From the NCBI RefSeq assembly GCF_003991155.1, contig NZ_CP031293.1: a stretch of 64,000 nucleotides of DNA; one strand, 5' to 3'. The notes under the pieces are model-generated. The model was not told the origin of the DNA and made no database searches. It saw nothing but the letters and a program-made list of their open reading frames with translations. The first letter of the stretch is position 1, and the number at the start of each line of letters is the position of its first letter. Made by a program: the position numbers and the translations under genes. The stretch comes from Escherichia coli (lineage in GTDB: Bacteria; Pseudomonadota; Gammaproteobacteria; Enterobacterales; Enterobacteriaceae). Below are positions 1 to 14,079 of this stretch, piece by piece.

Positions 1-118
1 TCTCTACCCTGCTTAATGCTGTTAGAGAAGCATTTAGACCCCTTATTTTTAATTACCTAAAGTATCCTCTATACATCTCTGTTATGAAACACCTCTGAAT
101 CCTTCATAAAACACATTA

Positions 119-178
119 TGACGCAAAGAACACTTTTCTAAGGTGATTCCCTTCCTGAACTCTGTTTCTTGCGTCAGA
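119..178. repeat. Imperfect inverted repeat (TGACGCAA...TTGCGTCA arms, about 30-bp spacer)
   Basis: Read directly: tgacgcaaagaacac at 119-133 and ctgtttcttgcgtca at 164-178; the outer 8 bp are perfectly complementary. Confidence 0.5.
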
Positions 179-180
179 GA

Positions 181-300
181 GCTACACAGAGAGCTTATAA
201 AGCTATTATTAATAATAAAGTAGATAAAGTAAGTAAGATAAGTAAGAAGATTAACTAAGATAGATAAGATTAATAAGATCAGAATTCTCTTTCGGTGTCG
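181..300. repeat. Purine-rich low-complexity tract of degenerate AAGATA/AAGTA units
   Basis: Read directly: aagtagataaagtaagtaagataagtaagaagattaactaagatagataagattaataagatc. Confidence 0.5.
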
Positions 301-323
301 CCTCTGGCTTTTCCACCGAAAAC

Positions 324-474
324 AATTACACGACTACAGAATGTAGGAAGTGAAATTGTATTGAGGCTTAGTGAAATTACACGAGGAAAGCAGAGTGTAA
401 TTGAGCTTTAGCCGCTCTCTCTTCGAGTAATTACACAACTACAGAGAATAACAGAGTTATTAAATGTAGGAGGG
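324..474. repeat. Direct repeats AATTACAC(G/A)ACTACAGA ... ATGTAGGA(A/G)G, with extra AATTACAC / GTGTAATT copies forming a short palindrome
   Basis: Copies at 324-350 and 428-474; inverted arms aattacac / gtgtaatt within 371-406. Confidence 0.5.
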
Positions 475-883
475 TAATTAAGAGTTAGAGAGAGTTAACA
501 CGTAAGCAATCAGATGATTGGTTAGGTGATTACTCTTACTGCGCACAGCGCAATAGTATTCCTTCGTGGGCGTTACCGCCAACGATAGTTACACGAAGAA
601 AGTAACGCTTTGCTTTCGGTGTGAGCGGAACGGGCCAGCCACAAAGCCCGAAAGGTAGCGGAGTAAGGCTGCTTGCCAGAGAGTGGAGCTAACGCCGGAA
701 GGCAAAAGATCATATATATAGTATAAAGAATATTATTTAATTATAGTATTGGTGGAACTCATTACCTAAGGTAAACCGGAGACCACTTCCAACGGTTAGG
801 CAACCACTTCCAATTGTGTTATTTCCCCTTTTACCCTAAGTAAATTTTAGCCTTTCGTTACATCCATTTATCACATAGCACTT

Positions 884-1018
884 ACCCTGTGTAAATCATA
901 GAATAATGCTCTCTATTCCCTGTGTAATTCCATACTAAAAAATTCAATGAAAAGTAGTTTAAAAGTGCAATGTTAGCTTTCTTCACTTTTACATCACTTT
1001 CGCTGCGCCTTGTGTAAT
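884..1018. repeat. Three direct copies of a CCYTGTGTAAW motif (iteron or operator-like)
   Basis: ccctgtgtaaat (884-895), ccctgtgtaatt (918-929), ccttgtgtaatg (1007-1018). Confidence 0.45.
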
Positions 1019-1312
1019 GCGGCTTACAGAGCACTATCAGAAATTATTGATCAAAAATCAACCTATTATTTGTCGAACAAGTTTTCTTTAATGCAACAAA
1101 AATTATTTTTTCAAAATAAACACACAATTTAATAGCTTGCTAATTTTACCAAAATGTAACTACATGATTCTCATGCAAGAAGTGTAGTGATAAGGCAGGC
1201 TAAATCACCACACTAAAAAACTTCGAATTTCGTAGTGAAAAAAGTACTTTACACACCTAATCAACACGCCCAATAATCACTACACACAAATCAATACAGA
1301 AGAAAAAAGAAG

Positions 1313-1864
1313 ATGGCTAATATTGGATACATTAGGGTATCGACTGTGCAACAAAACACAGACCGTCAATTAGCAGGAGTAACTCTTGATAAAGTCTTTG
1401 AAGATAAAGCGTCAGGCAAGAACACTCAGCGCCCACAGTTTGAGGCAATGATGAACTATGTGCGGGAGGGTGACGTGTTACACGTCCATAGTATTGATCG
1501 CCTTTGTCGTAATACAGCCGACCTTCTGGCAACTGTAGAGCAATTAACAAAGCGCGGCGTGTCTGTGCATTTCCATAAAGAAGACTTTAAGACAGGAAAG
1601 AACTCTCCCGCAGGGAATATGATGCTCACAGTTCTTGCAGCAGTGGCACAAATGGAACGTGAAATGATGCTTGAGCGTCAACGTGAAGGGATCGCCGCAG
1701 CCAAGGCCGCTGGACGTATAGCAAAACGTGGTAATGGAAAAGCAATTGATCGAGCGGGAATTGCTGCCGCTCTCGCGAATGGTGGCTCAATTCGGAGCGT
1801 AGCAAAAGATTTCAGTGTCAGCACGCAGACGGTGCAACGTATCAAGAAAGAGCAGGTGGCGTAA
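1313..1864 (+). CDS. Small serine recombinase (resolvase/invertase family)
   Basis: 183 aa. N-terminal IGYIRVSTVQQ motif with the catalytic Ser typical of serine recombinases; C-terminal helix-turn-helix (SIRSVAKDFSVSTQTVQRI). Confidence 0.8.
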   Translation: MANIGYIRVSTVQQNTDRQLAGVTLDKVFEDKASGKNTQRPQFEAMMNYVREGDVLHVHSIDRLCRNTADLLATVEQLTKRGVSVHFHKEDFKTGKNSPAGNMMLTVLAAVAQMEREMMLERQREGIAAAKAAGRIAKRGNGKAIDRAGIAAALANGGSIRSVAKDFSVSTQTVQRIKKEQVA

Positions 1865-2030
1865 TGCCTCCTTGATATTTGACAGGGACGGTCGGCAAAA
1901 ATCGGGGCTTGCTGATCTCAGCGTTGAGCGGTTCTTGCAATGGTGCCTAGGTGCTCGCTTGTATTCCCCTTCGATAATCACCACTAAGCCACTTATTGCC
2001 TTGTGGAGTGGCCCGAAAATTACTGATATC

Positions 2031-2495
2031 TTATTGATTCAGTCGATCCCATTTAACCGCAGATACAATTCCCCAATTACCACTAGCATTAGGCCTACGC
2101 CACTTCGCGGTTTCCATTCCACGAAGGTATTCGAGAGCTTCATTGAACGAACTGAAACGTTTCTGGGCTGATTTTTCCCCTACTCTAAACGAACCATCGC
2201 GAGTACTTGCCAATCCTGGATGAAAACACGACCCATCTGCAGCATAAGGAACAAGTACCTCCTGATCATCAGGTTTCCTTGAATCAGAAGCCAGTAACTG
2301 CCAAGGCTCAATACGCAAAGCGTCAGCCAGAACCTCAATTGCATCAAGAGATGCATTAGAGCAACCACGCTCAATTCGACTCATATAACTACGTGCAAAA
2401 CCACACCGATCTGCAAAGGCCTCTTGGCTTAAGCCAATAGCTATACGGAACTCTTTTACTCGTTGTCCAAAAAGGTATCTCAGATTCTTTCGCAT
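2031..2495 (-). CDS. XRE-family helix-turn-helix regulator with an uncharacterised C-terminal domain
   Basis: Start trimmed to MRKNLRY. HTH segment IGLSQEAFADRCGFARSYMSRIERG is Cro/CI-like; divergent from the downstream secreted-protein gene. Confidence 0.7.
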   Translation of the reverse strand: MRKNLRYLFGQRVKEFRIAIGLSQEAFADRCGFARSYMSRIERGCSNASLDAIEVLADALRIEPWQLLASDSRKPDDQEVLVPYAADGSCFHPGLASTRDGSFRVGEKSAQKRFSSFNEALEYLRGMETAKWRRPNASGNWGIVSAVKWDRLNQ

Positions 2496-2605
2496 GGCAC
2501 AAAGATGCAATTTGACGCACCAATTAACCACGCACTAATCGTGACATTTTGAATCAATCATGTATTATTAGCATCACCATCCATTTGACACACCAAGGGA
2601 GACAA

Positions 2606-2953
2606 ATGAAAAAACTAGTATTTGCCGCTTTGTTAATTCCAGTGATGGGCCACGCCACAACCTTTTCCTGTAAAGCAATACAGGAAGGTCATATTGACTC
2701 GGGAAGTCAGAAAGTTTCTGTAGATTCAACTTTTGATATACAAGATAAAAAAATGACCATAAATCTTGGCGGTAAAACTTGGAGACTTGATTTGGTAGGT
2801 CAAAAAAGCATCGCAAAGATGTATGCTACACCTGACGGAGGGGTTGCAGCCACATACATTGACAATGGCAGTATACCGATATTTGTATTACGCCCTTCTA
2901 ATCCCGATGGGGAGATGGCTGTTTACACATTGAGTATGTGTTCTGAAGTATGA
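2606..2953 (+). CDS. Small exported protein of unknown function
   Basis: Start trimmed to MKKLVFAALLIPVMGHA, a signal-peptide-like N-terminus. No recognisable domain. Confidence 0.5.
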   Translation: MKKLVFAALLIPVMGHATTFSCKAIQEGHIDSGSQKVSVDSTFDIQDKKMTINLGGKTWRLDLVGQKSIAKMYATPDGGVAATYIDNGSIPIFVLRPSNPDGEMAVYTLSMCSEV

Positions 2954-3030
2954 TTGATCGGCGTGATATTCACGCCGTTTTTGGGGAAATTTGTATATTG
3001 AAAAATATAGAAATAGAACTTTTATCAAGC

Positions 3031-3756
3031 CTATTTATTAACAGGTAGTAATGTCAGATCGCCATAATGGGCTTGTCTATGGCAATTAGGACATAATGCA
3101 ATAGCATTTTCCACAGAGTCCTCCCCCCCCTTTGAAAGCCACTCAATATGATGAACTTCTAGAAATGGAGTACCATCTTCCTTTAGAAAAGGAGCATCTC
3201 GCTTACAATATTGACATTTTCCATTTGCACTCAAAAGAACTTCAGCAACTACATATGGGCTTCGTTTATAAACTCGTGTTGTTACTTCGATTAGTTCCGG
3301 GATTTTACTTTCTGTCGCTAAAATTTGCTTTCGTTCCACTGAAGATAATTTTGCAGCCGTCTCAACAGCTTCTTCGAAAACCGATTTTACTTGACGATAA
3401 CGCCACATCCCTTCTAAATCCTGGTATAATTCCCAAATACCGTGCACAGATGGTTGATAGATTTCAAAAATATTTCCACGCTTGAACAATCGGTCATACT
3501 TATGATGCCGATGAGTTACATCATCAGTTCGTCGGGCAGTTTTGTTGAAACTCCAGTAGCTCCGCTTACAATTAACTGTATTAGCAATTAAATTGAGCCA
3601 AGTATTATCTTTATAAGATGGAAATAGCTTTCTAAGATAATCATCTACCTGCTTAGCCGTTGCAGCCCCACCAAACTGATTAGCAATTATCTGTATGGTA
3701 ATAGCTCTTATCGGTTGATCGCCATACTTGTATTTTTTGCCTAAATTTTTAACCAT
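3031..3756 (-). CDS. McrA-like HNH endonuclease; candidate modification-dependent (type IV) restriction nuclease
   Basis: C-terminal CQYC...LEVHHIEWLSKGGEDSVENAIALCPNCHRQAH is an HNH motif with paired Cys zinc ligands. N-terminal roughly 150 aa unassigned. Confidence 0.6.
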   Translation of the reverse strand: MVKNLGKKYKYGDQPIRAITIQIIANQFGGAATAKQVDDYLRKLFPSYKDNTWLNLIANTVNCKRSYWSFNKTARRTDDVTHRHHKYDRLFKRGNIFEIYQPSVHGIWELYQDLEGMWRYRQVKSVFEEAVETAAKLSSVERKQILATESKIPELIEVTTRVYKRSPYVVAEVLLSANGKCQYCKRDAPFLKEDGTPFLEVHHIEWLSKGGEDSVENAIALCPNCHRQAHYGDLTLLPVNK

Positions 3757-3884
3757 AGAAGACTCACTAAGCCTAAATTCATCTTAAGTTATTATTGTAA
3801 ATTAGTTGTGAAAATTTTTGATCTCAGACAATAAAAATCTACAAATTATTAGCTGGTTATACACTAAGAAGGATACACGAATAA

Positions 3885-5192
3885 CTAAGTCTCCCAACAA
3901 AGACCATCGATCACATAACAAACGGTGGAAAGTGGGAATGTGTGCAGATAACGCTGGGTAATCCCTACTCCACTCTTTTCATGACCTACCACCTGTTGCA
4001 GATGCGCCAAATTACTCACCCAACCAGCTAAACAAGTAGAAATCATAGTATGCCGGAAACTATGCACCAAGCGCCGCTGCCCATAATCATCAAGATAAGG
4101 AATATCAAGCTGATCACGAACATCTGAAAGAACTTTACCTATCTTTGACATATTTCGACCTGAGACTTCCGAAAAGATTTTCTCTTTCCATTGGCGGTTA
4201 ACAAAATCCAGAAACCCCCACTCAATCAGTTTGGGATGAATCACTACCTGTCTTGTAGCATTCTCAGTTTTACCCAGCCTTCTTTCCGCGATCAGAAGAT
4301 AGTGCCGCTGGCTATCTTCATCAAATTTGATCTGCGACTTCTCCAGTTTAGCAATCTCACCTCTTCTGGCTCCTGTGTACGCCAACAACAAAGTGATCCA
4401 CTTCTGCCATCCATCAGGCTGCTTTAGTGCCCATCCTACAAATTTTTTCATTTCTGCTGCACTGTATGCACCAAACCTAGCTTTGGATGGTGCCGCTACT
4501 ATTCCATCAGTCGGAGACTTAGATAGAATATCTTTGTTTTCAGTCAGAAATGTTTTGAATAACGATTTGTAGATTTTAAGGTGCTTATGTACAGCCTCAG
4601 CACCAACTAAATCCTCTGGCAGCACATCATCACATTCGATTAGTTGCTGAATAGTCATTGACCTATACGGTTGCACTACACGCTTTGGTAAGTTTTCGAC
4701 AGTTTCCATTACTCGCTTAATATCTTGTTTGGTGATTGCCGTTACGTCTGTTTCTTTTCCCAAGACAACAAGCAATACCTCCATATAACGCTCATTTGCC
4801 ATTGAGATCGATTTTGTCCAATTTCGACCTCTTTCCTCCTTGTACATAGCCCACGCATCAGCAAGTGTTAGCACCTTTTCCGGTTTGGCTGGTGGTTGAA
4901 GCTGCAAAACTTCTTTAGAAATATTGTTCAATTGCTGAGGGAGTGGCAACGGAATCATTACGTTACGTGACGAAGCGATCAAGTTTGAAACAAACTTATT
5001 AAATTGTGGCAACGGAGTAGCGAGTGATTTAACGAAAGGAATGTGCGGAGTAAGGCCAATCATCAACGCCGATGCTTCGCGATAACTGTCAGTAAAAAGT
5101 GATTTTTTGTATATCCGACCATCCGAAAGCCGGATTTGTAGATAGTAATTACCGTTTCGCTGAAATGTGTATGGGAGAGTTCTTGACCTCAT
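3885..5192 (-). CDS. Tyrosine recombinase / integrase
   Basis: C-terminal catalytic signature (ARRGE, HSFRHT, VGHEK, TQRYLH). Start chosen at the internal Met (MRSRTLPY) because the first Met lacks an upstream ribosome-binding site. Confidence 0.8.
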   Translation of the reverse strand: MRSRTLPYTFQRNGNYYLQIRLSDGRIYKKSLFTDSYREASALMIGLTPHIPFVKSLATPLPQFNKFVSNLIASSRNVMIPLPLPQQLNNISKEVLQLQPPAKPEKVLTLADAWAMYKEERGRNWTKSISMANERYMEVLLVVLGKETDVTAITKQDIKRVMETVENLPKRVVQPYRSMTIQQLIECDDVLPEDLVGAEAVHKHLKIYKSLFKTFLTENKDILSKSPTDGIVAAPSKARFGAYSAAEMKKFVGWALKQPDGWQKWITLLLAYTGARRGEIAKLEKSQIKFDEDSQRHYLLIAERRLGKTENATRQVVIHPKLIEWGFLDFVNRQWKEKIFSEVSGRNMSKIGKVLSDVRDQLDIPYLDDYGQRRLVHSFRHTMISTCLAGWVSNLAHLQQVVGHEKSGVGITQRYLHTFPLSTVCYVIDGLCWET

Positions 5193-5385
5193 AAACGCCC
5201 CCTTTTTGTACCTTAACAGCATGATTTATGGTCAAAAAGAGATACAACCACATAATTTTCAAGACTATTTTGGCCCCCTACGCTGGCATTATCCAGATCA
5301 GGTGATACGGGTATTTCTCAGCCTTCACGCAGAAGGGCACCCCGAGTCGTTTGGTTGCGATGATAAATCGCAAAGGAGGATGGTA

Positions 5386-6866: not shown

Positions 6867-7205
6867 ATGACCATTAAAAATAAGATGTTGCTGGGTGCGC
6901 TTTTGCTGGTTACCAGTGCCGCCTGGGCCGCACCAGCCACCGCGGGTTCGACCAATACCTCGGGAATTTCTAAGTATGAGTTAAGCAGTTTCATTGCTGA
7001 CTTTAAGCATTTCAAACCAGGTGACACCGTACCAGAAATGTACCGTACCGATGAGTACAACATTAAGCAGTGGCAGTTACGTAACCTGCCCGCGCCTGAT
7101 GCCGGGACGCACTGGACCTATATGGGTGGCGCGTACGTGTTGATCAGCGACACCGACGGTAAAATCATTAAAGCCTACGACGGTGAGATTTTTTATCATC
7201 GCTAA
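6867..7205 (+). CDS. rcnB: Periplasmic Ni/Co homeostasis protein RcnB
   Basis: Start trimmed to MTIKNKMLLGALLLVTSAAWA (signal peptide), 112 aa; the longer ORF-track start is an upstream extension. Confidence 0.9.
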   Translation: MTIKNKMLLGALLLVTSAAWAAPATAGSTNTSGISKYELSSFIADFKHFKPGDTVPEMYRTDEYNIKQWQLRNLPAPDAGTHWTYMGGAYVLISDTDGKIIKAYDGEIFYHR

Positions 7206-7210
7206 AAAAA

Positions 7211-7231
7211 GCCCCCTCGGAGAGAGGGGGA
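7211..7231. terminator. GC hairpin between convergent rcnB and yehA
   Basis: ccccctc / gaggggg stem with ggaga loop; the A-run at 7204-7210 is a U-run for the minus-strand yehA transcript. Confidence 0.6.
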
Positions 7232-7286
7232 AATGCAAACACCTTGTTATTTTTTATTATTAGCCACTTGCTCGTCTTGCTTATTA

Positions 7287-8321
7287 TTAGTCGTATTTCA
7301 CATTGATTAATGCGGTTGCCTCCAGTGCGCCAGATTTAACTTTGTTTGTATCGTAAACGTAGTAACTGGCCGTTATCGGAATTGAAACCGTTGTATCTGT
7401 AAGTTTTGACTTTGCCGCAATTTCTTTTAAATTTGTATATCCTTTACTGCTGTTAGTGATATTTAAAAGTGTGACTGGCGTACCATTACTTTCAAGAATA
7501 AATCCTACGCCATTATCTTCCGCACCTTTCAGGATCGTGTTGCTGTTGGTTAACAAGTCAGAACTTGATAAATACACCTGCATTTTCCGTGATGTTTGAT
7601 TTTGTTGACCTAATAAGTTTTTACAACGCAGAACAATATCCCCTTTGTTACTATTTATTGTTGCTTTGTTACCTGTAGCTGGTAATTGTGAAACGGGAAT
7701 ACTCTCTAACGTAATTAATAAATCGTCCGGTTTGCAGGTTGTGGTTATCGGGTTGTATGACAATGTCAGATTAAAGGAATAGACACCTGCATTTTGTGCC
7801 AATGCATTTCTGTAGCTATTTACACATGCATCCCATGACTTGCCACCGAATAAACACAGTAAAAATTGTACTGCAGCACTCCCGCGTGTCGATGATGAAG
7901 CACTGGATAATGTCGCAACACCATTAATCATCACTGAACCGCCGCCCCCCGCAGAAACATTCACTTTTGCATTACTGGCCGCAGGTGTCACCGTTACCGA
8001 ATAACCACTGGTGAAACTGGTCTGAGTATTTGACAACGTGATGTTGTTTTTATTGGTCCATTCAAAATGTAAATTTAATTTAATGGTATCGTTATAAAGT
8101 CCAACAATAATATCCGACGGGCTCATAGGGGTGATAGTATTTGTACTCACGCATGACGAATCATTAAAATTATGCTCATATGTCGCCATTTGTGTTTGAG
8201 TAAGTGCAAAATCCCCCTGAACAACCAAATTGTGCTGAACAGATAACTCACTATAACATGCTGCATAGCTCACAGGCATAACCATCATTATTAATATAAA
8301 TAGCATTATGCGAATTTCCAT
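7287..8321 (-). CDS. yehA: Fimbrial adhesin-like protein YehA
   Basis: 344 aa, signal peptide; last gene of the yehDCBA operon. Confidence 0.9.
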   Translation of the reverse strand: MEIRIMLFILIMMVMPVSYAACYSELSVQHNLVVQGDFALTQTQMATYEHNFNDSSCVSTNTITPMSPSDIIVGLYNDTIKLNLHFEWTNKNNITLSNTQTSFTSGYSVTVTPAASNAKVNVSAGGGGSVMINGVATLSSASSSTRGSAAVQFLLCLFGGKSWDACVNSYRNALAQNAGVYSFNLTLSYNPITTTCKPDDLLITLESIPVSQLPATGNKATINSNKGDIVLRCKNLLGQQNQTSRKMQVYLSSSDLLTNSNTILKGAEDNGVGFILESNGTPVTLLNITNSSKGYTNLKEIAAKSKLTDTTVSIPITASYYVYDTNKVKSGALEATALINVKYD

Positions 8322-8336
8322 AGAACCACCTGACTA

Positions 8337-10817
8337 TTACTGGCAAATATAATTTTTACTTTCATCAATCTCTTTACCGAAGGTGATTGTGCATGAAAGC
8401 CCTTGTTGCTTATCAATTGCCACATTAACCGATGGCGGTACTTCATTGGTGCGAATAAATAACTGGCTTCCCTGGCCGACAACACCAATATTATGACCAT
8501 GGATATCATTGACTTCATAACCAAACGTTAATGGTTGCCCATCCGCTCTTAATGCTTTTATAAACCATGGCTTGCGCTGATCGGTATCAAAATTAACCAG
8601 TACAACCGCGCCGCGATAAGGGGCGGCAATTTTCCGGTTGCCACGTAATTCTGCTTCGCTATCGCTTTGTGACACATCCAACATCAGGTAATTTTCCCGA
8701 TAAGGTGTCATTCCGTCGTATACCACCACTCCATTACGGTTTGTTGTGCGATATTTTTGCCCATTGACATAAGCATCTTTAATTCCTGGCGCATTCATCA
8801 CAGCAAACGTTTCAGAAAGACGGTTTGCCAGATTAACGCCACCCGACCAGGCGACAATGCCCCCTGAAACACTGGCTCCAGCCTGTCGATAAGCACTCGA
8901 CTGACTATAACTGCCATTCACTGTCGCAACCGGCGCGTTCCAGGTTAAATTCGCCCCAGCTGTCGTTTCATTTCCCTGATACTGATAACTCAGGTTGACC
9001 CCATAGTTAAACTGATCCCGGCTTCCAACGGTTCCTGATAATCCCGTATTATTTGAGGCAACCCCCTGATCATCAAACGTCGTTGAGTTAGACATATATA
9101 TTTGCCGACGAGGCGTCGTAACGTCATCACCCCAATCAAAGGGAATCGATATAAAAATATTAAAACGTTTCTCTTCATGATGATTCTCGTCATAAGCCTG
9201 GCTTGCCGCGAGGGTATAGCTTATCCGTCGCAGGTTGTTGGAATAACTCAACTGATAATCCTTACTACTGCCGCTACGCCCCCAGTAATCTCGCCATAAC
9301 GTACTTAATGACACAGAACCCCAGCCTTCTGGCAATGACTGGCTCATATTAGCAGAAAAGCTATTTTTACGGCCAAAATCGTTCTGGTAATAATCGGCAA
9401 TGTCATAGATATCGTTTTCATCACGGCGATAATTATCTTTATTGTTTGCCCAAACGTGATCGTTAAATGTCCGGTAATCACGCGACGAATAACGCCAGGC
9501 TGCCAGACCAAAACGCGTCGACGTTTGGCTCACAAATTTGTTGTAGGCAATTTGATAACTTTGCCCGTCAAACACATCGCCGTTGTCTTGTTTACTATGC
9601 GACTTCGTGGCATCGACGGAAATGGCACCAATGCGTGTATTCCAGCCAGTCCCCAAAGTGAACGCGTAATAATTATTCGCGACCATCGATCCGCCATACA
9701 GCGTCAATAAGTTATTAAAACCATACTGATAACCCGCCTGAACAAAATCACTTTGTTTGCTCGCCCCTTCAATATGGCTACGACCTGCCGCAAAATCATA
9801 TTTCGACACGCCGGGTTGCAGCATATTCGGCACTGCTGCATAAGGCACCAGATAGGTGGTTACCGAACCGTCCGCCTCTTTCACGCTGACATCAAGATCT
9901 GCTCCACCACCGGCCAACTGCAAATCTGTAATCGCAAACGGGCCAGGAGGAACCTCTTTCTGATAAACCACAAAACCGTTCTGTTCAATAGTTACCAGCG
10001 CGTTACTCTGAGCAATCCCCTGCACCCGTGGCGTAAAATTCTGTTTCGAGTTAGGCAACATCTGCATATCACGAAACAACCGCACACCGCTGAAGCGAAC
10101 AGAATCAAAAATATCGCTTGATGTGTACATATCACCCACGCGAAGCGTGCCGAGAAGTTGGGCAAATCCACGTTCCAGATACAGGGTATTGCTTTTCCAC
10201 ACCCCTGGATTGCTATTTGTTTTACTGAAACTGGCATCAGAATGCAGTTGCCACCCCAGTAAGTTTAACCCGCTGTTAAAACGTACATATGTACTCTTGC
10301 TATTACCCGACGCTTTATAGTCGCTGTAATACTGACTCACATAATAAGAGGTATAAAACGCATTAATACCCCGCTCCCAGTTTTCCGGTGGAACATAGCC
10401 ACTTTCCAGTTCTTCCACCCACGCCTGCGGGACACTGAAATCGAGACGAAAAACTCCGATATCCCAGGTATAGCTCCCACCCTGAACAAGTTGCTCAAAT
10501 GTTAAACATTGCTTACCGCTGGCAAAGTTATCGGTATTAATGCCTAACCGCTTGATAATTTCCCTTGATAAACATGTTTCTTGCGGGTTGTCTTTAACAA
10601 TAATCTCATATTTCCCGCGCCATTGCTTATTGACATAAATATCGATGTCATACTGCCCCGGCAAGGGTTGATTATCATCAAGACGAATATTTGCAACCTG
10701 CTGGTCTTTCATTCCACCTATCATAAAATGGGTATCAAAGGTTTCTTCAGCTGCATAAGCTTCAATGCCGAGCAATAACGCTACGATTGCTGATGCAAGT
10801 GGGGTCATTCTCAACAT
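8337..10817 (-). CDS. yehB: Outer-membrane fimbrial usher YehB
   Basis: Start trimmed to MLRMTPLASAIVALLLGIEAYA, 826 aa; usher-family size and composition. Confidence 0.9.
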   Translation of the reverse strand: MLRMTPLASAIVALLLGIEAYAAEETFDTHFMIGGMKDQQVANIRLDDNQPLPGQYDIDIYVNKQWRGKYEIIVKDNPQETCLSREIIKRLGINTDNFASGKQCLTFEQLVQGGSYTWDIGVFRLDFSVPQAWVEELESGYVPPENWERGINAFYTSYYVSQYYSDYKASGNSKSTYVRFNSGLNLLGWQLHSDASFSKTNSNPGVWKSNTLYLERGFAQLLGTLRVGDMYTSSDIFDSVRFSGVRLFRDMQMLPNSKQNFTPRVQGIAQSNALVTIEQNGFVVYQKEVPPGPFAITDLQLAGGGADLDVSVKEADGSVTTYLVPYAAVPNMLQPGVSKYDFAAGRSHIEGASKQSDFVQAGYQYGFNNLLTLYGGSMVANNYYAFTLGTGWNTRIGAISVDATKSHSKQDNGDVFDGQSYQIAYNKFVSQTSTRFGLAAWRYSSRDYRTFNDHVWANNKDNYRRDENDIYDIADYYQNDFGRKNSFSANMSQSLPEGWGSVSLSTLWRDYWGRSGSSKDYQLSYSNNLRRISYTLAASQAYDENHHEEKRFNIFISIPFDWGDDVTTPRRQIYMSNSTTFDDQGVASNNTGLSGTVGSRDQFNYGVNLSYQYQGNETTAGANLTWNAPVATVNGSYSQSSAYRQAGASVSGGIVAWSGGVNLANRLSETFAVMNAPGIKDAYVNGQKYRTTNRNGVVVYDGMTPYRENYLMLDVSQSDSEAELRGNRKIAAPYRGAVVLVNFDTDQRKPWFIKALRADGQPLTFGYEVNDIHGHNIGVVGQGSQLFIRTNEVPPSVNVAIDKQQGLSCTITFGKEIDESKNYICQ

Positions 10818-10832
10818 AGGCAGCTCCTGCAA

Positions 10833-11507
10833 TTAAATTTTGTCACTAATATAGTTGCCATGGTCATCGATAATGGTCAGATGCCAGTTATTCGCATTAT
10901 TACTTTTGACATTAATACTCTGACTTTCTAAGGGGGCAATCATAATAGTTTCATAATTGACTTTGACATTATTAGCTTTGACATCCGAAATCGTCACCCA
11001 ATTTGCTGAGTCATTTTTTATCACCAATCCATTGCCACTGCGATTTACCCGTAACTTTTTAAATGTCGCTTTATTTACCGGTGCAATACCCGCAGGCCGG
11101 TAAAACAATTTGATTCTGTTTTGCATTGCAAATTTCAGTGCATTCTTGCCCTCTTGCTCTGGACTATTTGGTGGAATATCCAGAACATTCAGATAAAAAA
11201 TGCTCTCTTTATTAGTGGGCAGTTTATTCGGCATAATTTTGATTTTTACTTGCTGCCCGGAATTTGCCCCTATTTTTGCCACTGGTGGCGTTAACATGAA
11301 AGGAACCTGAATTTTTTCTGGTGGTAACGACGTATCACCATCATCAATCCACGCCTGCAGCAGCGAAGAACGGTTTCCCTGATTCATCAACTGCACCATC
11401 ACTTCTTTATTTTCTGCCGGGTAAATAATACGCGTCCCGTAGATAACAATACCGGCATGTGCAGGAAGGACCATAGAAGAAATGAGTAAAGCAAATAATC
11501 CTTTCAT
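10833..11507 (-). CDS. yehC: Periplasmic fimbrial chaperone YehC
   Basis: 224 aa with signal peptide; PapD-like chaperone between major subunit and usher genes. Confidence 0.9.
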   Translation of the reverse strand: MKGLFALLISSMVLPAHAGIVIYGTRIIYPAENKEVMVQLMNQGNRSSLLQAWIDDGDTSLPPEKIQVPFMLTPPVAKIGANSGQQVKIKIMPNKLPTNKESIFYLNVLDIPPNSPEQEGKNALKFAMQNRIKLFYRPAGIAPVNKATFKKLRVNRSGNGLVIKNDSANWVTISDVKANNVKVNYETIMIAPLESQSINVKSNNANNWHLTIIDDHGNYISDKI

Positions 11508-11520
11508 CTTAATGCCTCTT

Positions 11521-11551
11521 AAATTAAAAGGCCGCCATGGGGATAGCGGCC
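11521..11551 (-). terminator. Intra-operon hairpin between yehD and yehC (attenuator)
   Basis: ggccgc / gcggcc stem at 11530-11551 followed on the minus strand by a T-rich run. Confidence 0.45.
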
Positions 11552-11587
11552 ATGTTTATTACCTGGAGAAACTTGAAATTTTATTTA

Positions 11588-12130
11588 TTAATCCTGCGCC
11601 ACACGCATAACCAGAGAAGATAACACATCACCTGATTGCACTGAATTATCTGTCAGCTTCAGGTATTTTGCTTTAAACGGAATAGCATATTGACCTTCCG
11701 CTGTTTTATAACTCTCAATGTTAAAAGGTGCAGAAACATCCAGGACATCGCTGTTATCACCTAAATAGAGATAGTACCCCACGGTATCGTTGCTACTGGC
11801 TATCGCCTTATCGTTTCCGGTTATTTTATCGTTGGTAATCAACGAGAGTTTTACACCAGCAACTTCTTTCGGACAGCTAATTTTTAACATGCTGCTGGTT
11901 ACACCGACTGCATCATCATAGGTCGAGTATTTAGCTTTACCTTCAAAGACAGTGGTTGGTACAGTTGGCATATTAATACTTACTGAATCGCCACCCGCTT
12001 CGAATTTACACGGAGATTCTGCAATATTCCCTTTAATGGTTAATGTTCCGGTATCAACGTCTGCGGCAAATACCCCAGCGCTCATAAAAAAAGAAGAAAA
12101 GACAGCGGCAGCAATAATTGAACGTTTCAT
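11588..12130 (-). CDS. yehD: Major fimbrial subunit YehD
   Basis: 180 aa, signal peptide; first gene of the operon, downstream of an AT-rich region. Confidence 0.9.
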   Translation of the reverse strand: MKRSIIAAAVFSSFFMSAGVFAADVDTGTLTIKGNIAESPCKFEAGGDSVSINMPTVPTTVFEGKAKYSTYDDAVGVTSSMLKISCPKEVAGVKLSLITNDKITGNDKAIASSNDTVGYYLYLGDNSDVLDVSAPFNIESYKTAEGQYAIPFKAKYLKLTDNSVQSGDVLSSLVMRVAQD

Positions 12131-12350
12131 AATATGTTCCTTAATAAAATTTATTTTTTGGTTGTTAAGAGTCTGTATCTCTTAGAAACAAATTTCTCAC
12201 ATCAAAAAAGTTGCCGCAATGTAAACATATTGTTTTATTGATTTAAAGCAAATTAACTATTGCAATATAAATACAACAAATACTTAAGCATATTAAATAT
12301 TTATCACATCTATTAATTAATGCAGATTTTTGTAAATGGTATTATTTATA

Positions 12351-12387
12351 TCAATAAAAAAGCTAAAATCATTCACACGAATGATTT
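12351..12387 (-). terminator. Rho-independent terminator downstream of yehE
   Basis: Perfect 9-bp stem aaatcattc / gaatgattt with a 4-nt loop, followed on the minus strand by a T-run. Confidence 0.55.
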
Positions 12388-12425
12388 CAGCTTTCTAAAT
12401 CCGATTAAAAAACCAGGGTGGCAAA

Positions 12426-12707
12426 TTAATCGTAGCGATTTAACACGATTCGACGTTTGCTATCGCTACCTGCAACAACCACTTCTGTCGTTACACCTTT
12501 GACTGGCGAAGAAACCTGATGACGGGTATCAACATCATACGTTAACTGACCACAATGCTGTTGAGGTTGTCCATTAACCATAGCCATACTGCATGTTGGG
12601 GGACTGATCCTGCCATTAATCGTTAATGTGGCAGTCTGTGAAGAGAACGCGGGAGAAGCCATTCCATAGGCAAGAAAAATAATTCCTGACAGCCAGTACT
12701 TATTCAT
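12426..12707 (-). CDS. yehE: Small exported protein YehE
   Basis: 93 aa with signal peptide. Confidence 0.85.
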   Translation of the reverse strand: MNKYWLSGIIFLAYGMASPAFSSQTATLTINGRISPPTCSMAMVNGQPQQHCGQLTYDVDTRHQVSSPVKGVTTEVVVAGSDSKRRIVLNRYD

Positions 12708-12969
12708 TGAACGTTATCCCTGTAGTAAAGGTTATGCCTGGATAGAATGAGTGCATAACAAACTATAGCTGTACATCCACTACACAGCCACGAAGGATGA
12801 TAATGAAGCATTGCCTGTACGATCAATCGACTTTATAGAGTTTCGGACGAAGGTCCGCAGAATATTTGCAGCATTAAATAAGTGTTCATTAATGCGGCAA
12901 AAACAAATACACCGCATCAATGTAACATCTCTGCGGTGTATGAAAAGCAACCAAAAAGGTTTATACGCG

Positions 12970-14079
12970 TTAGACCGCGCGGAAGGAAATCTCGCCAGGA
13001 ATGACTTCTCCCTGCCAATAAAGCTGGGCTGCAACGCGGTCAGCCAGCTGGCGGTAGATAGCGGTAAATTCGCTCTCCGGACGGCTGATAACCGTTGGCG
13101 TGCCTTTATCGAGATCTTCACGTAAGGAGATGTGTAACGGCATCTGCCCCAGCAACTGCGTGTGGTATTTCTCGGCCAGTTTCTCTGCACCACCGGTACC
13201 GAAAATCGGTTCATGGTGACCACAGTTACTGCAAATATGCACACTCATGTTCTCGACAATACCGAGCACCGGAACCTCGACTTTCTCGAACATCACAATG
13301 CCTTTTTTCGCATCGATCAACGCAATGTCCTGCGGGGTGGTGACCACTACCGCGCCAGTTACTGGAATGTTCTGTGCCAGTGTCAATTGAATGTCACCGG
13401 TGCCTGGCGGCATATCAAGCACCAGATAGTCGAGATCCGGCCACAAGGTTTCCTGCAACATTTGCATTAACGCCTTGCTCGCCATCGGACCACGCCACAC
13501 CATCGCATTGTCGTCAGTGACCAGATAACCAATTGAATTGGTTGCAAGGCCATGAGACATAATCGGTGCCATGTGGGTACCGTCCGGCGAAGTTGGACGC
13601 TGATTTTCTGCGCCCAGCATGGTGGGGATTGATGGGCCGTAGATATCGGCGTCCAGAATGCCGACTTTCGCCCCTTCCGCCGCCAGTGCCAGCGCCAGGT
13701 TTACCGCCGTGGAGGATTTACCCACGCCGCCTTTACCGGAGCTGACCGCAATGATGTTCTTCACGCCGTTAATTCCCGGCTGATTCTTCACGCGTTTTAA
13801 GGTGGCGATATTGTGCGACAGTTTCCAGTCGATAGCTTTCGCCCCGGTGATACGCAGCAGTTCGGCGCTACATTGCTCTTTTAACTCTTCGAACGCGCTA
13901 TGCCAGACGAATGGCATAACCAGTTCCACATGCAACGTGTCGTCCATCCAGGCGACATGGTGCAACGCTTTCAGCGTGGTGAGGTTATGCTTCAGGGTTG
14001 GGTGCTGAAAATTGGCCAGTGTCCCGGCGACCATTGCGCGCAAGGCTTCTGGTGATTTGGCCTGGGATTGTTCGTTCAT
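12970..14079 (-). CDS. mrp: Fe-S cluster carrier ATPase Mrp/ApbC
   Basis: Start trimmed to MNEQSQAKS, 369 aa; P-loop GKGGVGKS. Confidence 0.95.
   Translation of the reverse strand: MNEQSQAKSPEALRAMVAGTLANFQHPTLKHNLTTLKALHHVAWMDDTLHVELVMPFVWHSAFEELKEQCSAELLRITGAKAIDWKLSHNIATLKRVKNQPGINGVKNIIAVSSGKGGVGKSSTAVNLALALAAEGAKVGILDADIYGPSIPTMLGAENQRPTSPDGTHMAPIMSHGLATNSIGYLVTDDNAMVWRGPMASKALMQMLQETLWPDLDYLVLDMPPGTGDIQLTLAQNIPVTGAVVVTTPQDIALIDAKKGIVMFEKVEVPVLGIVENMSVHICSNCGHHEPIFGTGGAEKLAEKYHTQLLGQMPLHISLREDLDKGTPTVISRPESEFTAIYRQLADRVAAQLYWQGEVIPGEISFRAV

Follow-up and report, generated by a model that had tools for sequence, protein, structure and literature searches.

A conserved stem-loop between the pilin and chaperone genes of the Escherichia coli yehDCBA fimbrial operon and its possible role in pilin mRNA excess

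Gene organization of the locus

The 64,000-nucleotide stretch of Escherichia coli DNA analysed here (contig NZ_CP031293.1 of NCBI RefSeq assembly GCF_003991155.1), referred to below as the window, carries at 7287-12130 an intact E. coli yehDCBA chaperone-usher operon of the gamma-4 clade, and the element under study is a hairpin located between its first two genes, the pilin gene yehD and the chaperone gene yehC. The genes, the hairpin and the short features adjoining it are as follows.

11588..12130, minus strand: yehD, major fimbrial subunit, 180 amino acids (aa) (open reading frame (ORF), RefSeq annotation on identical DNA, Pfam Fimbrial PF00419)
11530..11551, minus strand: hairpin after the pilin gene, DNA GGCCGCTAT-CCCC-ATGGCGGCC, RNA GGCCGCUAU-CCCC-AUGGCGGCC (fold, consensus scan, conservation)
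11521..11529, minus strand: interrupted U-tract TTTTAATTT directly 3' of the hairpin (T-score 3.67, d-score +13.5)
11515..11520, minus strand: yehC Shine-Dalgarno AAGAGG, read from the sequence, 7 nt before the ATG at 11507
10833..11507, minus strand: yehC, periplasmic chaperone, 224 aa (ORF, RefSeq annotation, Pfam PapD_N and PapD_C)
8337..10817, minus strand: yehB, outer-membrane usher, 826 aa as annotated (RefSeq annotation, Pfam PapC_N, Usher and PapC_C)
7287..8321, minus strand: yehA, two-domain tip adhesin, 344 aa (ORF, RefSeq annotation, Pfam Fimbrial at residues 184-344)

The yehDCBA region exhibits 100% identity over 6.5 kb to several complete E. coli RefSeq genomes, in which the ORFs are annotated as fimbrial protein (yehD), chaperone (yehC), usher (yehB) and fimbrial-like adhesin (yehA) with 0 pseudogene flags, and in which the locus lies between rcnB and yehE-apbC-metG. 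The chromosomal locus is the same as that of K-12 yehDCBA, the gene lengths are equal to those of K-12, and the yehD-yehC junction is ~96% identical to K-12. All expected Pfam domains were matched: the Fimbrial domain in YehD (PF00419, E = 3e-7, above the gathering score), PapD_N (E = 5e-42) and PapD_C (E = 6e-9) in YehC, PapC_N, Usher (E = 6e-194, full profile) and PapC_C in YehB, and a Fimbrial domain forming the C-terminal half of YehA (residues 184-344 of 344), the N-terminal half of which is without a Pfam match. The annotation of identical DNA and the Pfam matches confirm the operon identity and coordinates that the first-pass annotation had given, the full-length domains, K-12 lengths and lack of pseudogene flags likewise bear out its statement that all four genes are intact, and the GC hairpin with a T-run that it had placed between yehD and yehC is recovered as a fold at 11551..11530 followed by TTTTAATTT.

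The yeh locus was found in 5425 of 5426 complete E. coli genomes, and Yeh has been assigned to the gamma-4 clade beside Salmonella Stc (PMC12778044, 2026, from the uropathogenic E. coli (UPEC) field); the same paper describes the role of the YehA-type adhesin together with a solved receptor-binding domain, and reverses the A-D naming, so that its YehA is the pilin and its YehD the adhesin. In a derivative of E. coli O127:H6 E2348/69 (L005, 1174-1849), an enteropathogenic E. coli (EPEC) strain, yehC is annotated as frameshifted, and the operon is therefore not intact in all lineages.

Structure and terminator character of the stem-loop

The yehC-yehB and yehB-yehA spacers are 15 nt each and hold just a Shine-Dalgarno sequence (AGGAG at yehC-yehB), and the 80 nt from yehD to yehC constitute the sole sizeable gap within yehDCBA. 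The hairpin in this gap comprises 9 pairs, including 6 G-C and one U·G, closed by a 4-nt loop and followed directly by TTTTAATTTA, and it is located on the sense strand, 36 nt past the yehD stop and 22 nt before the yehC ATG. Its RNA folds at -15.7 kcal/mol (z = -3.8), a stability reached by 0 of 200 shuffles, and the 83-nt yehD-yehC intergenic region folded whole gives z = -2.5. The antisense strand folds at -13.1 kcal/mol with no T-run after the structure and with an A·C mismatch replacing the U·G pair, and since the pair turns into a mismatch on the other strand, the structure is specific to the sense strand. The window holds a single copy of the hairpin sequence, and most E. coli genomes likewise have this part of the locus only once, so the hairpin is not a repeat element; an Rfam scan of 7000-13000 at E <= 1 returned no match.

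Directly behind the stem, UUUUAAUUU presents four U, then AA, then three U. The d'Aubenton-Carafa discriminant (d-score) was +13.5 for this element, compared with +15.3 for the terminator of the upstream gene yehE and +4.1 for the terminator at the operon end, values that are indicative only, as the calculation mixes modern energy parameters into the 1990 formula. The terminator consensus scan alone was not significant, as it returned 3 sites in 6 kb where shuffled sequence gave an expectation of 5.4, and the case for a real hairpin thus rests on its position, on its conservation with compensatory changes and on its recurrence in homologous operons. In the consensus scan, neither yehD nor the yehD-yehC gap yielded a sigma-70-like site matching at 9/12 or better. 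In K-12 the hairpin stem and tail are the same as in the window.

A 1-nt difference between the CCCC loop of the window and the CCC loop of K-12 bears on the RefSeq-style 224-aa yehC start. The CCC loop of K-12 brings the ATG that immediately precedes the stem (ATGGCCGC...) into the reading frame of yehC, whereas in the window (11524-11553) the CCCC loop breaks the frame of that ATG and leaves a 9-codon ORF, MAAIPMAAF, that ends in the T-run; a stop codon also lies upstream in the yehC frame of the window. Older K-12 annotation carried a 239-aa YehC, and the in-frame ATG 5' of the stem would explain the 15 extra residues. This variation in loop length thus supports the 224-aa start of current RefSeq annotation and confirms the non-coding nature of the hairpin.

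Conservation of the stem-loop in Escherichia and in related operons

The gap was aligned among the window, K-12, two further E. coli, O157:H7 EDL933, two E. coli representatives, E. whittamii, E. albertii and two other Escherichia species. EDL933 carries a divergent allele at the same locus that is 74% identical to the window across the gap, and differential conservation was observed for the different parts of the element, with identities of 17/18 in the stem arms, 1/4 in the loop, 24/46 in the upstream spacer and 6/12 in the tail. The loop ranges from 3 to 6 nt in length among Escherichia alleles. Double changes from G-C to A-U were observed at two core pairs, one in E. whittamii and E. albertii and the other in Escherichia sp. 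MOD1; a third compensatory change is located in the extended stem, and the U·G pair becomes C-G in divergent alleles. The hairpin structure pairs 95.5% of alignment cells versus 14-63% with the partner slid by 1-3 columns, and its covariation score was reached by 0 of 500 shuffles, a result that is treated as supporting and not as proof given the small sample of 9 distinct rows from related sequences. The consensus fold of the 11 Escherichia sequences retained only the hairpin, and the most conserved intergenic part is the stretch from the Shine-Dalgarno to the ATG of yehC, with a mean column identity of 0.99. This pattern of substitutions indicates that the hairpin is under selection.

The tail does not follow the stem in this respect, as divergent Escherichia alleles have TTTTAATTT swapped for (A)GCATAAATAT or similar and the stem lengthened to 10-11 bp, and the O157:H7-type tail behind the stem is AGCAUAAAUAUAAG. 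The longer stem without a T-run is shared by EDL933 (L002), by L008-L010 and by L032, which comprise O157:H7-type and other Escherichia alleles. The EDL933 allele at the yeh locus need not be 'Yhl', as both yeh and yhl are present in half of phylogroup E strains (PMC12778044). A second, more distant locus was observed in each of E. whittamii and Escherichia sp. E1V33 (L026 and L028), with 55-57% chaperone identity and without an upstream yehE, and these second loci may represent the 'Yhl' pilus.

The wider survey, conducted with YehC and one genome per species, recovered 80 loci with chaperone identities from 96% down to 32% in Escherichia, Salmonella, Citrobacter, Klebsiella, Serratia, Acinetobacter, Pseudomonas, Cupriavidus, Burkholderia and other genera. 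A pilin-sized ORF is located directly upstream of the chaperone gene in almost every survey locus, separated from it by a gap of 25-190 nt. The fold of these gaps is more stable than that of dinucleotide shuffles, at z < -2, in 54 of 73 cases (median z -2.7), and a single hairpin at -10 kcal/mol or better is present in 66 of 71 related operons, with sequences at the same junction that are unrelated from genus to genus, which means that the structure is kept and not the sequence. The terminator character is less widespread: at least 5 T within the next 8 nt after the hairpin were found in 16/71 operons and a terminator-like discriminant (d > 0) in 10/71, figures to be read as a range of 10-16/71 and not as a precise count, as the procedure picking the best hairpin sometimes took a longer outer stem and thereby lowered d.

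Upstream region, yehE and other features of the window

Further features were located on both sides of the operon and are listed below.

12131..12425, minus strand: AT-rich yehE-yehD spacer, 295 bp, presumed H-NS-silenced promoter and 5' leader (GC scan, H-NS literature)
12166..12184, minus strand: conserved palindrome TAAGAG-N7-CTCTTA, 35-53 nt before the yehD ATG, with conserved arms and a varying centre
12190..12283, minus strand: highly conserved non-coding block including GTTTACATTGCGGCAAC and TGTGAGAA, candidate promoter or regulator sites (MAFFT alignment)
12357..12396, minus strand: yehE intrinsic terminator, an AT-rich 18-bp stem around AGCUGAAAUCAUUC-GUGU-GAAUGAUUUUAGCU followed by a U-run (fold, conserved block, d-score +15.3)
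12426..12707, minus strand: yehE, DUF2574, 93 aa, with signal peptide (RefSeq annotation, Pfam, profile comparison)
7204..7230, minus strand: operon-end intrinsic terminator CCCCCTCTCTCCGAGGGGG followed by C and T7 (consensus scan, d-score +4.1), located 57 nt past the yehA stop and abutting the end of the convergent gene rcnB

With 24.1% GC against 50% for the window, the 295-bp yehE-yehD spacer is the most AT-rich stretch of the 64 kb, and equally AT-rich 290-bp windows amount to 0.08%. The AT-rich region of about 290 bp upstream of the operon that the first-pass annotation had reported thus holds, and its description of a silenced promoter agrees with literature on the same locus in K-12 (PMC5797941; bioRxiv 10.1101/2024.06.20.599902). 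K-12 yehDCBA appears in H-NS regulon data sets as H-NS-bound and repressed, is cryptic in the laboratory, it was up 3.6-fold with overproduced SlyA, an H-NS antagonist (both PMC5797941), H-NS repression of yeh was reported by Korea et al. (as given in PMC5797941), and the operon lies within a static silenced protein-occupancy domain (bioRxiv 10.1101/2024.06.20.599902).

The length and composition of this spacer are preserved across several genera, as in 26 loci the distance from yehE to the pilin gene is 261-319 bp (272-295 in all but two) at 24-32% GC, even where YehE is only 29-40% identical. The conserved block at 12190..12283 was obtained from a MAFFT alignment of 27 spacers from Escherichia, Salmonella, Citrobacter and Superficieibacter. 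A strong and conserved yehE terminator makes up the first ~70 nt of the spacer; a 94-nt stretch here folds at -27.4 kcal/mol (z -5.8), and the terminator was missed by the G+C-based scan. Taken together, the terminator, the conserved length and the conserved blocks indicate that the ~290-bp region is more than AT-rich DNA. A promoter could not be assigned to any site in the spacer by consensus scan: the candidate at 12354..12326 is one weak, non-conserved match, and the conserved TTTACA...GAGAAT motifs are spaced by 21 nt, too long for a standard sigma-70 promoter. A preprint has named the operon 'yehEDCBA' (bioRxiv 10.1101/2024.06.20.599902); the strong yehE terminator implies that yehE forms, for the most part, a transcription unit of its own rather than just the leading gene of such an operon.

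Among the 33 survey loci whose chaperone identity is 55% or higher, 27 have a DUF2574 gene immediately upstream of the operon, on the same strand in 26, and none was detected at the more distant survey loci (<55% chaperone identity). Profile-profile comparison (hhalign) of YehE homologues with the neighbouring pilins gave 96.6% probability and E = 7e-10 over residues 1-42, where the aligned stretch consists of the signal peptide, the first strand (TATLTINGRI vs TGTLTIKGNI) and the first cysteine, and the remainder is unaligned. The alignment of YehE also exhibits a conserved C-terminus, IVLNRYD, with a pilin-like penultimate tyrosine, and an AlphaFold2 model from an 18-sequence alignment is all-beta at low confidence, with a predicted local distance difference test score (pLDDT) of 63 and a predicted template modelling score (pTM) of 0.30. 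The search for sequence relatives of YehE in the PDB found none, the literature search on yehE and DUF2574 returned only noise, with the term DUF2574 not found, and a comparison of the DNA upstream of yehE with that upstream of yehD, made for a duplication of the regulatory region, revealed no similarity. On this sequence and profile evidence YehE may be a fifth component of Yeh/Stc pilus loci, which we offer as a lead and not as a finding; if true, this secreted protein of ~70 residues could affect pilus assembly, as a donor-strand-only cap or competitor, or its regulation.

Elsewhere in the window, an island of ~7.7 kb is located between two copies of the thiM thiamine pyrophosphate (TPP) riboswitch (window 1-5354, continuing past the window start; L086, 1691-9519), with a cargo of a tyrosine integrase, an HNH endonuclease, a helix-turn-helix protein, a recombinase-family protein and hypothetical proteins. 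Of the two riboswitch copies, that at window 5259-5354 on the minus strand lies immediately in front of the integrase gene and the other in front of thiM, and the island appears to use the TPP riboswitch as its attachment site. A second stretch at GC <=30% lies inside the island at window 881-1341, beside the recombinase-family gene.

Discussion

The hairpin between yehD and yehC is a real and selected element, and attenuation is probably not its family-wide conserved role, although attenuation at the hairpin is plausible in the allele of the window. The interpretation favoured here, in which our confidence is evenly balanced, is that in this allele the hairpin would both serve as a leaky Rho-independent terminator and shield the yehD mRNA at its 3' end. 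Transcription would start within the ~225 bp between the yehE terminator and yehD, which are very AT-rich, conserved and H-NS-silenced in laboratory strains; some RNA polymerases would halt at UUUUAAUUU, yielding a short yehD mRNA whose 3' hairpin would shield it from 3'-to-5' exonucleases, and the remaining polymerases would read through into yehC, yehB and yehA. The expected outcome would be a surplus of mRNA for the pilin, of which hundreds of copies per fibre are needed, relative to that for the chaperone, usher and single tip adhesin.

The canonical anatomy of the element (9-bp stem with 6 G-C, 4-nt loop, four U) and a d-score comparable with those of the two flanking unit-boundary terminators speak for termination. 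Read-through is implied by two observations, namely that a constitutive promoter upstream of K-12 yehDCBA gave functional fimbriae (Korea et al. 2010 as summarised in PMC5797941) and that the region from yehD to yehC holds no promoter-like site; as complete termination would be lethal to operon function, the terminator is read as leaky. Several points weigh against a terminator. The U-tract is interrupted (U4 AA U3), it is absent from O157:H7-type, E. albertii, E. whittamii and other Escherichia alleles that keep the stem, it is missing from most homologous operons, and the d-score is indicative only. Moreover, 3' ends of yehD, yehC and yehE were not found in the searchable Term-seq supplements of PMC7815308 (Adams et al. 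2021), as expected for an operon that is silent in laboratory K-12; the listing of Dar & Sorek 2018 includes fim and not yeh, a full-text literature search for yehD with terminator returned nothing on this element, and array results in which yehD alone changed are anecdotal (PMC6963283).

The strongest alternative, possible although somewhat unlikely in our judgement, is that the hairpin serves as a decay barrier and stops no polymerase: the full yehDCBA transcript would undergo endonuclease cleavage downstream and 3'-to-5' exonucleases would stall at the hairpin, leaving a long-lived yehD mRNA by selective RNA processing and stabilisation. It agrees with the conservation of the hairpin and not of the U-tract, as stems are kept in alleles and species without a T-run and the hairpin of 66/71 operons has the look of an intrinsic terminator in only 10 (d-score > 0) to 16 (T-rich tail), and differential decay has been documented for the pap and CFA/I pilus operons (PMC5927463). 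However, the four U directly past the stem and the positive terminator score lead one to expect some termination in the allele of the window. As the U-tract is missing from divergent alleles and from most homologous operons, termination cannot be the conserved function of the hairpin, and since the hairpin is retained even where a U-tract is lacking, the role shared across the family is more likely to be protection of the 3' end, in other words differential decay. The sequence comparisons make it more likely that termination, on the leaky-terminator interpretation, is an addition in this allele to a conserved hairpin-dependent protection of the 3' end.

Translational control, in which the intergenic fold would mask the yehC ribosome-binding site and lower chaperone synthesis relative to pilin, is improbable. 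When the 83-nt gap is folded to its minimum free energy, GUUUCU on the 5' side of the hairpin does pair with AGAGGC, which is the yehC Shine-Dalgarno, but this outer helix amounts to 6 bp with two G·U pairs and is lost in the consensus fold of the 11 Escherichia sequences, and conservation of the Shine-Dalgarno stretch is expected anyway. It is very improbable that the hairpin is a full terminator, with yehD as a separate transcription unit and yehCBA under their own promoter, since a d-score as high as those of the unit-boundary terminators stands against the lack of any sigma-70-like site at >=9/12 in yehD or the gap, the mere 22 nt between the hairpin and the yehC ATG, and the sufficiency of an upstream constitutive promoter for functional K-12 fimbriae. 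Equally hard to credit is a palindrome that is incidental, or that acts at the DNA level as a site for protein binding or recombination, and has no role in RNA: the GC-rich GGCCGC/GCGGCC could in principle be bound by a protein and the antisense strand folds too, but the T·G position is tolerated only as a wobble in sense-strand RNA, the loop varies in both length (3-6 nt) and sequence, and other genera have unrelated hairpin sequences at the same junction.

The favoured interpretation of the yehD-yehC hairpin provides a concrete cis-element for the subunit ratio of the Yeh pilus, which is present in nearly every E. coli and which recent work links to the binding of pectin and to colonisation of the gut. 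In the chaperone family surveyed, hairpins after the pilin gene are the rule and U-tracts are optional, which matters where pilus operons are split by terminator predictors. A broader proposal, which we regard as doubtful and put forward tentatively, is that a stem-loop after the pilin gene, with no need of a U-tract, would be a near-universal selected part of pilin-then-chaperone operons that sets pilin excess mainly via mRNA 3'-end protection, and that YehE (DUF2574) would be an unrecognised fifth component of Yeh/Stc loci.

Comparison with known systems

The element is a fresh instance of a long-known form of pilus-operon control, located in a fully annotated operon, and will not surprise a specialist. 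Similar elements are carried by the fimA, K88 and K99 operons. The closest likeness is with papA-papH of the P pilus operon pap, where a stem-loop is likewise located directly after the major pilin gene inside the operon, and where it results in abundant, stable pilin mRNA and less mRNA for the downstream assembly genes, an effect that we infer for yeh. On the other hand, pap differs in having RNase E cleavage upstream of papA together with a 5' stem-loop, and a regulator gene, papB, preceding the pilin gene, whereas the pilin gene is the first gene of the yeh operon. In colonisation factor antigen I (CFA/I, cfaAB), selective RNA processing and stabilisation allows an intra-operon hairpin to set subunit stoichiometry after transcription, which fits the conservation of hairpins free of a U-tract in the yeh family; the gene order and stabilised segment of CFA/I, as described by Jordi et al. 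in 1993, reportedly differ from those of yeh.

Compared with canonical Rho-independent terminators, represented at this locus by the yehE and yehA sites, the yehD-yehC hairpin shares the stable stem, short loop, 3' U-run and positive d-score, and its stem is G+C-rich like that of the yehA terminator, whereas the stem of the yehE terminator is A+T-rich. It differs from them in its position within an operon, where the next start codon follows after 22 nt, in a U-tract interrupted after four U and in the requirement for read-through. The Salmonella stcABCD operon and other gamma-4 operons resemble yeh in their four-gene layout, the upstream yehE homologue, the AT-rich spacer of ~280 bp and the hairpin after the subunit gene; their hairpins, however, are unrelated in sequence, are located 3-10 nt after the stop as against 36 nt in yeh, and are mostly without a U-tract.

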